A DNA stretch of 10,854 nt, taken from the UHGV virus genome UHGV-0113369, one strand, 5' to 3'. How positions within the stretch are numbered: position 1 is the stretch's first letter; each line of letters starts with the position of its first letter. Below the pieces are notes generated by a model. It saw only the letters and a list, made by a program, of their open reading frames with translations. It did not search any database and was not told the DNA's origin. Below, one piece after another: positions 3,727-7,782 of the stretch. Origin of the DNA: a virus. The position numbers and the translations under genes are program-made.

Positions 3727-4668
3727 TCACCCCCTGAATCCTGCCGGGATCTGGCTGTAGTCCACGTTGTCGTAACTGGATTTGAAGTACGGATCTTCAC
3801 GTTTTTCTGTGTATGTGCTGACGGACGGCGATAAGCGCAGGGAAAGCTCATCCCATTTTTCCCGCAGCTTCGACGGGCTGAGCACGTTACGGCACCAGAA
3901 CGGATCGCGGCTGACGCGGCTGTACATCTCGCAGATTTGTTTGTGAGTACGACCATCCTGCACACACATCAGGCGAATTTCGTTTGCCCAGGCTGTCCAG
4001 TTCGGTTCTTTGGGACGAACCACCTCGCCGTCACATTCGGCAGCCTGCTCGTACAGGGCGATGATTTTTTTCCAGAGCCACTGTGCGCAGGTCAAATCAT
4101 CCTGCGTTCCCCACTGGCGCTTTTTAGGGCTGAATACAACCGCATCAGGATGGCGAGTTAAAAAATCCTGTTCAGCCGTCTGCGTGTCCGGTTGCGAAGC
4201 GTCCGGACGAGAAGGTTTTTTATCTGACGGTTCATGTTTTGATTTTACTGACGGATCCCCGCCAGATTCTGACGGGTGAAAACCCGCTTTTTTGCCAGAT
4301 TTCGACGCATCAAATTTTGACGGGTCAGATTTTGATGCGTCAGATTTTGACGGGTCAGAATCTGACAGTTGAGAAAATGCCGCTGCCTGAAGCTTCGCAA
4401 CGTTAAGCTGATAAACATTCGACGCATTGCGGTTACCCTGGCGACGCGCCTTACGCGTTAACCAGCCTTCTGCTTCCAGCCGTGCGATAGCCGTTCTGAC
4501 GGTACTCATCCCCGCGCCAATCTGACGGGCAATGGTTTCAATTGATGGCCAGCACACACCTTCGTCATTACTGAAATCAGCCAGGCGGGCCATAATTGCC
4601 ACGCTGGATAATTTCATGCCTGACGCAGCGCAACCATCCCATACATAGCCGGTTAATTTAGTGCTCAT
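3727..4668 (-). CDS. Phage replication initiation protein (N-terminal HTH, lambda O-like role) with internal pentapeptide repeats
   Basis: 313-aa ORF. N-terminal 90 aa look like a winged-helix/HTH replication-initiator domain. Central low-complexity repeat DPSKS/DASKS/DPSKF/DASKS is encoded by a 15-bp tandem DNA repeat. RBS GAGG 6 nt upstream of ATG 4668. Confidence 0.7.
   Translation of the reverse strand: MSTKLTGYVWDGCAASGMKLSSVAIMARLADFSNDEGVCWPSIETIARQIGAGMSTVRTAIARLEAEGWLTRKARRQGNRNASNVYQLNVAKLQAAAFSQLSDSDPSKSDASKSDPSKFDASKSGKKAGFHPSESGGDPSVKSKHEPSDKKPSRPDASQPDTQTAEQDFLTRHPDAVVFSPKKRQWGTQDDLTCAQWLWKKIIALYEQAAECDGEVVRPKEPNWTAWANEIRLMCVQDGRTHKQICEMYSRVSRDPFWCRNVLSPSKLREKWDELSLRLSPSVSTYTEKREDPYFKSSYDNVDYSQIPAGFRG
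4220..4368. repeat. Iteron array (candidate origin of replication) inside the initiator gene
   Basis: Four to five contiguous 15-bp units YCAGATTTTGACGGG at 4295-4368, another copy at 4262-4276, and degenerate copies near 4222-4254 (TATCTGACGG, TTTTACTGACGG). This parallels lambda ori iterons lying within gene O. Confidence 0.6.
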
Positions 4669-4677
4669 GACCGACCT

Positions 4678-5016
4678 CTATTTCCCTGAATTTACGACGA
4701 AACTGTTCGAGCGGGCTGAAGCATTCATGCTCATAGCCTTCGCGGAGGTAGATAACCCGTTGTGTTTCCGGTTCCCAACGAATGACTCTGACGGGCACTC
4801 CGTAGTGATCTTTGAACCAGCGGTTAACTTGTCGCAAAGGACTGTCTCCTTCTGCCGGTTGAAATCACCCACAGCCCACTCTGCAAAGCTGTGGGTTACA
4901 ATTTCCCTGTCACCTGGTACATTTACTGCATAGCAATACTCCACCTTCGCTTTTCCACCCGGTACAGGAAGCGCAATCAGTTGCGAGCGACGGTAGTGTG
5001 TTGTTAAACTGTTCAT
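4678..5016 (-). CDS. Hypothetical protein (uncertain coding status)
   Basis: 112-aa ORF whose ATG (5016-5014) overlaps the CII-like stop (ATGA). No recognisable motif. It contains an 8-bp GC-rich hairpin (4868-4895) and is overlapped by an antisense plus-strand ORF. Confidence 0.3.
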
Positions 5017-5597
5017 GCGTTAGTTTCTCCACAACCAGAAGCAATCGACGCCACGACGCCCGGAGCTGCACACTCGCGGGCGTTACTCTTTTCCGGCGCA
5101 CAAAAAACACGAAATAACAGTGTTAAATGCTCCTGCCACTTCGCCATTACTTGGTAGCTGTTCTCTTCGATTTGCTCACGCTCAGCTTGGTCAATAACTC
5201 CATCAGCAGTTGCCTTGCGTAAGTACTGGGAATGCTTGCCAATCCATTCTATTGACTCCATCAGCCGCTGATTAATGTCACCATTGTCAATGTCATCAAT
5301 GACCACCAGCGGCACAAACACCCCATTACTACGACGGGCTATTGCATCCGTTACATGCCTGGTACCACTGGCATCCTGTAAAACCATGGCCCACTCAAGT
5401 GGAAAAATTTGATCCCCACCGCTACGCAGTCTGTTATGCAATTGATCTTTCGCTGGGGTGATATCATCAGATTTATACAAACCAAGAATTTCCGCTGCTT
5501 CCTCATAGCCATGAGGTAAATCAGCAATCGTTCTTCGTATTGCTGCCACCAGCCATGCTGGTTGCTTATCAACTTTCCATTCAGGTTCTTTACCCAC
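5013..5597 (-). CDS. CII-like lysogeny regulator (CP76/YdaT-type), GTG start
   Basis: 194-aa ORF immediately downstream of the cro-like gene, the position of lambda cII. GTG start at 5597 with GAGG 7 nt upstream. Family assignment is by recollection of Phage_CP76-type proteins and is tentative. Confidence 0.45.
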
Positions 5598-5633: not shown

Positions 5634-5834
5634 TTATCCATTAGATTTTTCATAAAGCTCAGGTTTAAATGGCAACCGTCCGCAAGTTCTATATGCAGCC
5701 TCTGCTGCACGTCCTTTTGGAATTAACTGGCCAGGACGGTTTCGCCACTGATAAACGGCTTCAGTTGTTATGCCGAAAAAAGCAGCAACTTTCTCAATGC
5801 TGCCGAAGTAGCTTTCGATATCGTCAGTCGTCAT
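5634..5834 (-). CDS. cro: Cro-like repressor
   Basis: 66-aa basic protein divergent from the CI gene. Strong RBS GGAGG 4 nt before ATG 5834. Some resemblance to lambda Cro in the central/C-terminal region (AVYQW...GRAAEAAYRTCG). Confidence 0.6.
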   Translation of the reverse strand: MTTDDIESYFGSIEKVAAFFGITTEAVYQWRNRPGQLIPKGRAAEAAYRTCGRLPFKPELYEKSNG

Positions 5835-5931
5835 ATGCCCTCCAAACTAAGTTTTATTAGATGTTAATTATCAATCTATCTTAGGTCAATAAAAACTAAG
5901 ATTACTTAGTAATTAAAGAAATGGTGCTCCT
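5835..5931. promoter_or_regulatory. Immunity-region OR: divergent pR/pRM promoters with AACTAAG-type operator palindromes
   Basis: AT-rich 97-bp spacer between divergent cro-like and cI genes. 11-bp palindrome AAACTAAGTTT at 5844-5854 and 16-bp palindrome ACTAAGATTACTTAGT at 5895-5910. Candidate pR on the minus strand: -35 TTGACC (5889-5884), 17-bp spacer, -10 TAACAT (5866-5861). Confidence 0.55.
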
Positions 5932-6558
5932 ATGGAAACGGTTGGTCAGCGTATAAAAGCTCTGAGAAGAGTTACCAGAACGTCCCAGAAAGAATTGGGT
6001 AAATTTTGTGGAGTAAGTGACGTTGCTGTGGGGTACTGGGAGAAAGACATCAATGTCCCTGGTGGGGAAGCACTTTCAAAATTAGCGAAGTTCTTCAATA
6101 CGTCAATAGATTACATTCTTTATGGTGCGGAGTTTGAAGGCAAACTCGTCACAAACATGCGCAGAGTTCCTGTAATCTCGTGGGTTCAGGCTGGGCAGTT
6201 TACTGAGTGCAGGACAGCAGAAGTGTTTAGTGAAGTAGACAAGTGGGTAGATACATCATTAAAGATTGGTGATAACTCATTTGCATTGGAGGTTAAAGGC
6301 GACTCCATGACTAACCCTAACGGCCTCCCAACAATACCAGAAGGCGCAACAGTGATTGTAGATCCTGATGCAGAGCCCCGGCATGGAAAAATAGTCATCG
6401 CTAGACTTGATGGAACAAACGAAGCCACAGTAAAAAAATTAGTTATCGATGGCCCTCAAAAGTTTTTAGTGCCATTAAATCCCCGGTACCCCAACATCCC
6501 GATCAATGGTAATTGCCTCATCATTGGTGTAGTCAAAGGAGTTCAATACGAACTCTAG
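5932..6558 (+). CDS. cI: CI-type prophage repressor (HTH_XRE N-terminal domain + S24 LexA-like autopeptidase domain)
   Basis: 208-aa ORF. N-terminal HTH (QKELGKFCGVSDVAVGYWEKD). C-terminal S24 peptidase motifs (EVKGDSMTNP with catalytic Ser; KKL with catalytic Lys). Divergent from the cro-like gene. Weak or absent SD, consistent with a near-leaderless pRM transcript as in lambda. Confidence 0.9.
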   Translation: METVGQRIKALRRVTRTSQKELGKFCGVSDVAVGYWEKDINVPGGEALSKLAKFFNTSIDYILYGAEFEGKLVTNMRRVPVISWVQAGQFTECRTAEVFSEVDKWVDTSLKIGDNSFALEVKGDSMTNPNGLPTIPEGATVIVDPDAEPRHGKIVIARLDGTNEATVKKLVIDGPQKFLVPLNPRYPNIPINGNCLIIGVVKGVQYEL

Positions 6559-6576: not shown

Positions 6577-6613
6577 AAAACACCGAACTAAGAAAAGTTT
6601 GGTGTTTTCTCTT
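6577..6613 (+). terminator. Putative intrinsic terminator downstream of cI
   Basis: Stem AAAACACCGAAC (6577-6588) pairs with GTTTGGTGTTTT (6597-6608) including one G-U; 8-nt loop; followed by TTTTCTCTT. Stem is A/U-rich so strength is uncertain; it may instead be part of the OL operator region. Confidence 0.4.
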
Positions 6614-6640
6614 GCCATTAAAACTAAGTTAAGTTAGATT
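6612..6640 (+). promoter_or_regulatory. Candidate pL-like promoter overlapping an OL-like operator
   Basis: -35 TTGCCA (6612-6617), 17-bp spacer, -10 TAGATT (6635-6640). The spacer and -10 contain AAACTAAGTTAAGTTAG, the same AACTAAG motif seen in the cI-cro intergenic operators. Confidence 0.35.
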
Positions 6641-6742
6641 TTATATCAAAGATAACGAACAGGTAGGACGCCCACGAAGTAGCCGCCGGTGGCGTATGAA
6701 TGACCGGATGATTCGTTAAATACTATGTGTAAGAGAGCGCAA

Positions 6743-6946
6743 ATGAACCGTTATTTCACATGCTCGTTTTGTGGCGCAAACGAGCTGCAGGCAAAAAAAA
6801 TCATCGCCAAAGGCGGAAAAGATGAAGTTGCTATCTGCTCTGAGTGCGTAGTCTTGTGTGTCGGGGCATTAATCGATATCAGCACAACTATTCAGTTCAC
6901 ACCAAATGAGAATGCGCCTTTAGATGCGCGGAAATCTGGAGGTTAA
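6743..6946 (+). CDS. Free-standing ClpX-type C4 zinc-finger (ClpX N-terminal ZBD-like) small protein
   Basis: 67 aa from ATG 6743 (RBS AAGAGAG 5 nt upstream). CSFCG...KIIAKGG...ICSECVVLC aligns by eye with the E. coli ClpX N-terminal zinc-binding domain ([30 protein letters not shown]). No AAA+ ATPase domain follows. Confidence 0.6.
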   Translation: MNRYFTCSFCGANELQAKKIIAKGGKDEVAICSECVVLCVGALIDISTTIQFTPNENAPLDARKSGG

Positions 6947-6954
6947 AGAACAAA

Positions 6955-7230
6955 ATGAAAGTCCAGATTTTAAACAATAGTGGTGAAGTCGTTTGGTCAT
7001 ACGACATAGCCGCTACTGTAGATCAGAGCGGCGATAGCTGGACCAATGGGAAACATCAGATTATGGCTGGAGTTGTGTTCTCTTTACGCCGTGCTTTAGA
7101 ACAGGCTGAAGTCTTTCCATCAGACCCTGAATGGAAATGGCCTTTTTCTATTTGTCCAAATTCGGAGAGTACATTTCAGAAAATTGGTCAGAAAGTCGCA
7201 CTCGAAGAGCATCAGCCAACTGTTTCCTGA
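6955..7230 (+). CDS. Hypothetical protein (91 aa)
   Basis: ORF with GGAGG 11 nt upstream of ATG 6955. No recognisable motif. The last ~27 codons overlap the convergent 81-aa gene, so the true 3' end is uncertain. Confidence 0.4.
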   Translation: MKVQILNNSGEVVWSYDIAATVDQSGDSWTNGKHQIMAGVVFSLRRALEQAEVFPSDPEWKWPFSICPNSESTFQKIGQKVALEEHQPTVS

Positions 7231-7393
7231 TTTTTTCAGGTAACTCGTCGGCATCGCAGAAACAACAACGCTCGATCATGTTGAAAGCTGATTCGTAGAA
7301 CTGTTTTTGCTGAGTGTCGCTGAGACAGGAAAAGAGCGACGTTACGATGATTTTATTAATTGCATTATCAAGTTCTTTTTCATCAAAAGTCAT
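7148..7393 (-). CDS. Hypothetical protein (81 aa), convergent to neighbours
   Basis: ORF with good RBS (AAAAGGAAAA, 7-8 nt spacing) before ATG 7393. Acidic/helical-looking sequence with a CCFC motif. Opposite orientation to the surrounding plus-strand genes. Confidence 0.5.
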   Translation of the reverse strand: MTFDEKELDNAINKIIVTSLFSCLSDTQQKQFYESAFNMIERCCFCDADELPEKIRKQLADALRVRLSDQFSEMYSPNLDK

Positions 7394-7646
7394 TTGATTT
7401 TCCTTTTATGTATACGGGCTTAAAAGGATACCACCGAGCCTGAAGTGGTGAAAAGACAGGCACATAACAGCTAAGTATTTTCAACCAGAGAGAATCCTTA
7501 GCGTTGTGGTGAATGCGGCTCAGCGCACGCGGGTTAAGGTTGAGGCTGACAGTCGACCTTCTGTGGATACCCACCCGCCTGGTGTGCAACCTTCGCCAGG
7601 CACCGGGAGGCACCCGGCACCACAACTTTATGCTGTGTGTAGTCTT

Positions 7647-7693
7647 GGCGGTACCAGCTTGTACCCTTGCTTCCGGCTGGTACCGTCCTTTTT
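7647..7693 (+). terminator. Intrinsic terminator-like hairpin in the leader upstream of the yfdP-like gene
   Basis: Perfect 10-bp stem CGGTACCAGC (7649-7658) / GCTGGTACCG (7676-7685), extendable by G-C and G-U pairs, loop ~15 nt, followed 3 nt later by TTTTT (7689-7693). Confidence 0.5.
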
Positions 7694-7782
7694 ACAAAAC
7701 AGAGAAGAGCATCACCGGACGACGGGCTCATAACCCAATCCATCCGGGCGGCAGTCACCGCAGGTGTTCTTCTCTGTTTTGT
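7694..7782. repeat. 20-bp imperfect inverted repeat pair flanking 49 bp
   Basis: ACAAAACAGAGAAGAGCATC (7694-7713) is the reverse complement of GGTGTTCTTCTCTGTTTTGT (7763-7782) apart from two G-T positions. The enclosed segment is GC-rich. Confidence 0.55.

Follow-up and report, generated by a model that had tools for sequence, protein, structure and literature searches.

The ClpXP protease sets the fate of lambda O, MuA, the Mu repressor, sigma-S, UmuD', antitoxins, and ssrA-tagged proteins, and the Mu repressor and MuA are classic clients of ClpX. Several phages are known to inhibit AAA+ proteases of their host: lambda cIII targets FtsH, while T4 PinA and T7 gp4.5 target Lon. Lambda RexB affects ClpP-dependent turnover of lambda O and of antitoxins. 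To our knowledge, none of cIII, PinA, gp4.5, and RexB reproduces the substrate-docking domain of the protease on which it acts. Stand-alone Clp N-domain proteins are known from plants, as ClpT1/T2. In ClpX, substrates and adaptors dock on the N-terminal zinc-binding domain (ZBD), in which Phe16 and Ile46 make up a hydrophobic pocket that binds lambda O, trigger factor (TF), SspB, and RssB (PMC7804408). When supplied free and in trans, the ClpX ZBD inhibits RssB-mediated degradation of sigma-S by ClpXP in vitro (PMC7226468). In cyanobacteria, the same Pfam domain (PF06689, zf-C4_ClpX) occurs as an accessory part of sigma factors (PMC11119718). Our literature search found no characterized function for a stand-alone or phage-encoded ZBD protein, in agreement with the first-pass annotation of the locus described here, whose author was aware of no characterized phage function of this type. 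Neither did it find a phage protein that inhibits ClpX or targets its substrate selection.

We analyzed a 10,854-nt stretch of the viral genome UHGV-0113369 (hereafter, the window), which corresponds to the early region of a lambdoid prophage (SfV/ST64B type) from E. coli. It contains a cI-like repressor gene on the plus strand (5932-6558; HTH_3 and Peptidase_S24 domains, PF00717 with E 1.6e-27 and PF01381 with E 3.5e-9), the product of which is named 'LexA family protein' by PGAP. A P22-Cro-like gene (5634-5834), a YmfL/CP76-type cII gene (5013-5597), and an HTH_36 initiator gene (3727-4668) lie on the minus strand; genes for YfdP, YfdQ/DUF2303, and an HD hydrolase are found to the right of the repressor gene. 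Inside the initiator ORF, at positions 4296-4359, the 15-nt unit CAGATTTTGACGGGT is repeated 4.3 times in tandem. These repeats are probably origin iterons, as in lambda O, and they account for a spurious Rfam match to mir-5880 at this gene. Directly downstream of the repressor gene, ORF 6743-6946 (plus strand, stop codon included) encodes a stand-alone ClpX-type zinc-finger protein of 67 aa, MNRYFTCSFCGANELQAKKIIAKGGKDEVAICSECVVLCVGALIDISTTIQFTPNENAPLDARKSGG, which carries the signature CSFCG...ICSECVVLC and belongs to phrog_5259 (E 4e-31), a family with the entry 'function unknown'.

The earlier assignment of this protein to zf-C4_ClpX is correct. Pfam PF06689 matches residues 6-40 with 41.6 bits against a gathering score of 27 (E 1.1e-10), and a phmmer search of PDB sequences returned ClpX chains only, with the E. 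coli ZBD entries 2ds5 and 1ovx on top (E about 3e-4). The lack of an ATPase module was likewise borne out: against the two NCBIfam ClpX equivalogs the protein reaches 25.8 and 22.8 bits, far under their cut-offs of 359 and 371, and the matches are confined to the first 43-48 profile positions, so that the AAA+ module is absent. An AlphaFold2 model built on 16 homologues has a mean pLDDT of 75.5; residues 1-50 are confident, and the tail (51-67) is disordered, with pLDDT <55 from residue 51. Among solved structures, the model matches only the ClpX ZBD (2ds5, 2ds6, 2ds8; probability 1.00), with a TM-score normalized to the target of about 0.8 and an rmsd of 1.4-2.1 A; other folds give no significant match. 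The 67-aa protein is thus predicted to have the treble-clef fold of the ClpX ZBD.

The cysteines that were first read as zinc ligands are kept in homologues. Cys7, Cys10, Cys32, and Cys35 (predicted ligand codons at 6761-6763, 6770-6772, 6836-6838, and 6845-6847, plus strand), together with Cys39, are invariant in the 16 sequences, down to 36% identity, and the CxxC...CxxC cysteines line up with those that act as ligands in the E. coli ZBD. We infer that the protein binds zinc. The Pfam alignment, the invariant columns, and the secondary structure of the model place the ZBD core at residues 4-45 (6752-6877); its C-terminal helix comprises residues 33-50 in the model. Residues 46-67 (6878-6943) form a variable C-terminal tail, predicted to be disordered from pLDDT, and both the lengths and the sequences of the tails vary among family members. 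In the phage protein the tail includes TIQFTP, which weakly resembles a phi-x-phi-x-F motif of some relatives. The protein has a net charge of 0, two Arg residues, and no arginine-rich motif.

ORF 6743-6946 is a real gene, as indicated by a dN/dS of about 0.1-0.3 with saturation at synonymous sites. Purifying selection acts on the ZBD core (dN about 0.2, dS saturated), and omega for the gene is 0.12-0.31 where computable. The start at 6743 is favored over the ATG at 6725, because it is preceded at a distance of 5 nt by a Shine-Dalgarno-like AAGAGAG (6731-6737, plus strand, read from the sequence) and because PGAP annotates the same 204-nt CDS. Frameshifted or Cys10-less copies of the gene were found in several E. 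coli genomes (e.g. H66 and H67) and in P0008; the frameshifted copies appear as 203-nt matches without annotation, and a plasmid copy reads 'CPLLVA'. Hence, the gene is dispensable in some resident prophages.

A distance of 184 nt separates the stop codon of the repressor gene from the start of the ZBD gene. At 6577-6608 (plus strand) an inverted repeat with 92% complementarity could form a terminator-like hairpin with 13-nt arms and a 6-nt loop, followed by TTTTCTCTT, which would end the repressor transcript. Clear GC hairpins with T-runs occur at the same place in other immunity modules, and SfV has an annotated terminator there. A promoter scan revealed a candidate sigma-70-like pL promoter, TTGCCA-17-TAGATT, at 6612-6640 (plus strand, 9/12 matches). 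Its spacer holds a putative operator, AACTAAGTTAAGTTAG (6621-6636, plus strand), a motif of which two more copies, at 5845 and 5893, lie between cI and cro; the form AACTAAG...TTAG is common to the pL spacer and the repressor-cro intergenic region. Being located behind a terminator and a repressor-controlled pL, the ZBD gene would be an immediate-early lytic gene in the N position. It thus appears to be the first gene of a repressor-controlled leftward operon, in the place of lambda N and not of rexAB. The first-pass annotation had put it where lambda carries rexAB or N, as the first gene after pL and adjoining the repressor gene. The promoter and terminator layout upholds the latter statement; as to the former, N stands, given a pL promoter with an operator, and rexAB falls, given the terminator in between. 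As read from the sequence, the same terminator hairpin and operator-bearing promoter speak against rexAB-like expression in the lysogen.

This arrangement is widespread. In 80 IMG/VR loci with the ZBD gene, we found the order repressor gene, terminator, promoter with the palindromes of the respective immunity module, leader, ZBD gene. It is maintained behind at least eight unrelated immunity modules, among which the ZBD alleles are 98-99% identical. Salmonella and Enterobacter prophages also keep the ZBD gene in the first place after the repressor gene, with pL operons that differ. In four Enterobacter prophages (L211, L212, L216, L217) the gene is the first after an S24 repressor gene, the leader RNA is absent, and the operons downstream vary, with ParB-like genes among others. 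In the Enterobacter and Salmonella loci alike, the ZBD gene is overlapped at its 3' end by a small antisense ORF.

Comparative analysis and covariation revealed a structured 5' leader of the pL transcript at 6655-6716 (plus strand). An outer 5-bp helix, P1 (6655-6659 / 6712-6716), encloses a 5-bp hairpin, P2 (6686-6690 / 6703-6707), with an invariant 12-nt loop, GGCRUAYGAAnn. Among 53 records of phages from many genera (Escherichia, Shigella, Salmonella, Pectobacterium, Pantoea, Yersinia, Klebsiella, Citrobacter, Providencia, and Aeromonas), the leader shows 81-97% identity and is far more conserved than the surrounding genes. It is present in SfV, SfII, SfIV, ST64B, ZF40, and mEp460, as well as in >120 IMG/VR contigs. 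Compensatory changes affect 5/5 pairs of P2, with at least 8 stem versions and 96% of cells paired, and the covariation score is 0.419 versus 0.124 in shuffles (0/500 reach 0.419). The single-sequence fold has no excess stability (z = 0.01), so that the structure is shown only by the comparative analysis. No Rfam family matches the leader (E up to 1). A put site was ruled out with a covariance model, which has no match in HK022, and the paper on the mEpimmI nut site, which deals with another phage group, does not describe a leader of the 6655-6716 type. There is one copy of the leader per genome, and it occurs independently of the ZBD gene.

Farther down the operon, Rfam STnc100, a gammaproteobacterial sRNA, matches 7473-7696 (plus strand) with 43.4 bits, just below the gathering score of 47 (E 7e-7). 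No convincing ORF was found in this stretch, and its 3' end consists of a hairpin and a T run (about 7640-7692), which together resemble a terminator within the pL operon; in SfV, a terminator is annotated at the matching place. Since an STnc100-like region with a terminator-like hairpin lies downstream, cis-acting antitermination by the leader is worth testing.

We then looked at which genes follow the leader, using about 112-120 IMG/VR contigs chosen solely by the presence of the upstream pL leader. The first ORF is the ZBD gene in only 12-13 of them (about 11%), a 73-aa phrog_1744 protein in 24 (about 21%), and a p91 (phrog_3195) protein in 13 (about 12%). The remaining contigs carry many unrelated small ORFs, many of them singletons, and none of the alternative first genes scanned against PHROGs is assigned a function. 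In SfV, the leader is followed directly by a homologue of p91, which is the next gene of the window (6955-7230). The place after the pL leader (6717-6955 in the window) is a hypervariable accessory-gene slot, and the earlier view of a hotspot beside the repressor gene agrees with these counts as far as variability is concerned.

The p91 ORF (plus strand, 91 aa) and an ORF of phrog_3311 (7148-7393, minus strand, 81 aa) converge with an overlap of 83 nt. Both are conserved, and PHROGs give neither family a function. p91 accompanies the ZBD gene in 6/10 cases and is present in 11/71 cases without it; each of the two genes also occurs alone.

A further proposal was that the 67-aa protein stabilizes the phage's own initiator (3727-4668). 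The same type of initiator is found in 5/8 ZBD-positive versus 59/73 ZBD-negative leader-bearing contigs, and the type of cII shows no association with the presence of the ZBD gene in leader-bearing contigs either. The ZBD gene is missing from most phages that share the pL leader and the types of initiator and cII. The gene is therefore optional, has no tie to a particular repressor, and is no obligate partner of the initiator. Since it is optional and unlinked to initiator type, the proposal is disfavored, and it is further weakened by near-identical ZBD alleles that adjoin unrelated immunity modules. A specific partnership with the phage initiator or with cII thus found no support in these contigs.

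A free-standing ZBD, the feature highlighted by the first-pass annotation, is not unusual. RefSeq/PGAP already calls the protein 'ClpX C4-type zinc finger protein' (WP_001083098.1). Of 5,426 complete E. coli genomes, 131 (2.4%) carry the gene, which ST64B-like prophages of Salmonella also have very often; a 112-aa relative from Salmonella is listed for >13,000 assembly blocks. The close enterobacterial family comprises about 13 clusters at 50% identity (E <1e-18). Among 8,000 candidates, >4,000 short PF06689 proteins have E <1e-3, and many of the stand-alone members are tandem double ZBDs of about 95-105 aa. With stand-alone PF06689 proteins numbering in the thousands, a free-standing ZBD is not rare. 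A first word-index protein search gave only 15 close matches, and a scan of genome contigs gave only 2 distant loci. Overall, the 67-aa protein is an uncharacterized member of a known and already annotated kind.

The nearest relatives of the phage protein are other stand-alone ZBDs and not enterobacterial ClpX. ClpX proteins of E. coli, Listeria, and Neisseria score about equally against it (20.5-24.5 bits). Recent capture from the host clpX gene was not supported, as E. coli ClpX is no closer than ClpX of other phyla. An 'AIC' subtype is common to the phage protein and to short proteins of a Mu-like prophage, of another prophage, and of a Paraburkholderia island. The Mu-like prophage belongs to Oleidesulfovibrio (L214, 3404-4277), and the gene for its 'AIC' ZBD protein of 65-68 aa follows the repressor gene at a distance of 75 nt in the same orientation, between the repressor gene and repeated transposase-binding-like motifs at the end of the element. 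In two unrelated metagenomic bacteria (L218, 1929-4261, and L219, 1574-4306), genes for an ECF sigma factor, a 270-aa protein, a stand-alone Clp_N protein, and a tandem double ZBD form a conserved cluster. Its gene content suggests that free Clp N-domains may act together in a sigma/anti-sigma circuit.

What could such a protein do? We propose that it may be a decoy or competitor for ClpX docking, a reading argued by analogy to which we give a probability of about 35%. An immediate-early accessory gene would encode a paralogue of the ClpX N-terminal ZBD and nothing else. The gene would be silent in the lysogen and would be expressed with the first message from pL on induction or infection. The free ZBD-like domain would then engage partners that normally dock on the host ClpX ZBD, which may be adaptors (SspB, RssB), substrates that depend on the ZBD, or, through heterodimerization, the ClpX ZBD itself. 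As a consequence, the choice of proteins degraded by ClpXP would be altered early in lytic growth. The contact with ClpX partners and the effect on proteolysis are what we infer from the domain. The domain match and the predicted fold, which among solved structures are found with ClpX alone, favor this reading. The idea of a decoy has an in vitro precedent, because the authentic free ZBD blocks adaptor-mediated degradation. The timing set by the putative pL fits a host-takeover function, and the target is not immunity-specific, given the 98-99% identical alleles beside at least eight unrelated immunity modules. The context of distant stand-alone ZBDs, twice in Clp_N clusters and once in a Mu-like immunity region, suggests a connection to Clp biology.

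The details of the sequence point both ways. In favor of a decoy, Phe9, which corresponds to Phe16 of the ClpX pocket, is invariant in the phage family; the position of Ile46 (residue 42) is A/T/V/I/K/L, and the position of Tyr34 is always Ala (the 'AIC' motif). The hairpin loop has a conserved insertion of three residues (AKGGKDE versus AGPS in ClpX), and the polar helix positions Asp41, Asn44, and Arg48 of ClpX are hydrophobic in the phage protein. Judged by its sequence, the surface of the phage protein is not a faithful copy of ClpX, which counts against a decoy, and so do the absence of host-specific mimicry in the sequence comparison, the closer kinship with other stand-alone ZBDs, the use of PF06689 in sigma factors, and the many leader-bearing phages that lack the gene.

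These family-specific traits that ClpX lacks (the AKGGKDE loop, Ala for Tyr34, and the hydrophobic helix face) also favor a generic treble-clef interaction module directed at some other host or phage target, e.g. in transcription, division, or defense, and functionally unrelated to ClpX, with the likeness to ClpX reflecting ancestry instead of mimicry. That the ZBD fold is a general interaction module follows from its fusion to sigma factors: PF06689 occurs in those of cyanobacteria and is joined to Sigma70_r4 in P0240. The gene, moreover, belongs to an old clade of stand-alone ZBDs, and its slot holds many unrelated genes without assigned function. A generic module accounts less readily for the stand-alone ZBDs that adjoin stand-alone Clp_N in two independent loci, for the one in a Mu-like immunity region, or for the retained pocket Phe16; we regard it as nearly as likely as the decoy. 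Another view keeps ClpX as the partner. As an adaptor or anti-adaptor, the protein would dock on ClpX with its ZBD-like domain, for example by pairing with the ClpX ZBD, and bring or block a client with its variable tail, thereby promoting or redirecting degradation. A conserved domain with a flexible tail that varies between lineages agrees with this, as do the beta-strand-like motifs in several tails (IDITF, IDISFPDAP, ITVKFGDAP, EITKISL; here TIQFTP), which recall tethering peptides, e.g. the XB tail of SspB, or UmuD. However, the motif is weak, does not contain the basic residue of the ZBD-binding consensus LKxh, and is missing in some members, e.g. in the 57-aa protein of phage 118970_sal3, which makes an adaptor improbable.

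The order pL - structured RNA - first gene mirrors that of lambda pL - nutL - N, and small C4 zinc-finger RNA binders are known in phages (Mu Com). Together with the terminator-like hairpin farther down the operon, this raises the question of whether the protein is a nucleic-acid-binding regulator that acts on the upstream leader, either as an N-like antiterminator or as a Mu-Com-like translational activator. Yet 108 of 120 leader-bearing contigs do not have the ZBD gene, the SfV leader directly precedes a p91 homologue, and Enterobacter prophages have the ZBD gene without the leader. The leader is present once per genome, with none on the pR side, and the protein is neutral and has no arginine-rich motif. 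With leader and gene independent, the leader single-copy, and the protein not basic, we consider an N-like or Com-like regulator very unlikely. Expression in the lysogen as an exclusion or defense gene, similar to rexAB or other morons beside repressor genes, would agree with a location next to the repressor gene on the same strand, and the Mu-like prophage homologue, 75 nt downstream of its repressor gene, has no obvious promoter. In all enterobacterial loci, however, a terminator and a repressor-controlled promoter intervene, and we find such a role very hard to credit. PADLOC returned no match to a known anti-phage defense system for the 67-aa protein or for five neighboring proteins.

If the decoy reading is true, ClpXP would be re-programmed in lytic development, so that, for example, phage proteins are stabilized or protease-triggered toxin-antitoxin defense is blocked. 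A possible function would then also be at hand for thousands of unannotated stand-alone ZBD proteins, and the thousands of stand-alone ZBD and Clp_N-only proteins might be general trans-acting modulators of Clp substrate choice. A stronger version of the claim is that this is the first natural virus-encoded free copy of the docking domain of a host AAA+ protease to act as a competitive decoy, which titrates SspB, RssB, and lambda-O-like or Mu-type clients or poisons ClpX ZBD dimers; we consider it unlikely to hold in full. If the protein is not a decoy, the locus has one more accessory gene with a familiar domain. In any case, a bare copy of the ClpX docking domain that is predicted to appear at lytic onset is a concrete and cheaply testable candidate.

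Among known systems, the E. coli ClpX ZBD (1OVX, 2DS5-2DS8) is the closest to the phage protein, with the same CxxC...CxxC arrangement, about 42% identity over 38 aligned residues, a predicted treble-clef fold (rmsd 1.4-2.1 A), and Phe16 of the ligand pocket kept. The phage protein differs from ClpX in lacking AAA+, in having Ala for Tyr34, a 3-residue loop insertion, and a variable Ile46 position, and in its more hydrophobic helix and disordered tail. It is a member of the stand-alone PF06689 set (PHROG 5259, 20296, 12435), for which PGAP uses the same name and none of whose members was found to have a characterized function; most database members of this set, in contrast, are tandem double ZBDs of 95-140 aa in non-phage contexts. 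Clp_N-only proteins are alike in concept, in that a free N-domain of an unfoldase exists beside the full enzyme, and they adjoin double-ZBD genes in two loci; yet they have another fold, a ClpA/ClpC-type partner ATPase, and are not phage genes. Lambda N/nutL and HK022 put resemble the locus in being located directly downstream of pL, with a gene after a conserved structured RNA, whereas here the protein has no arginine-rich motif, and the RNA has no boxA/boxB, is single, and mostly occurs without the ZBD gene. With cIII, PinA, gp4.5, and RexB, the 67-aa protein shares the status of a small phage protein, in the case of cIII also a place in the pL operon, and, by analogy, a proposed logic of blunting a host protease. 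A decoy function, if demonstrated, would add a new form to the ways in which phages control proteases.
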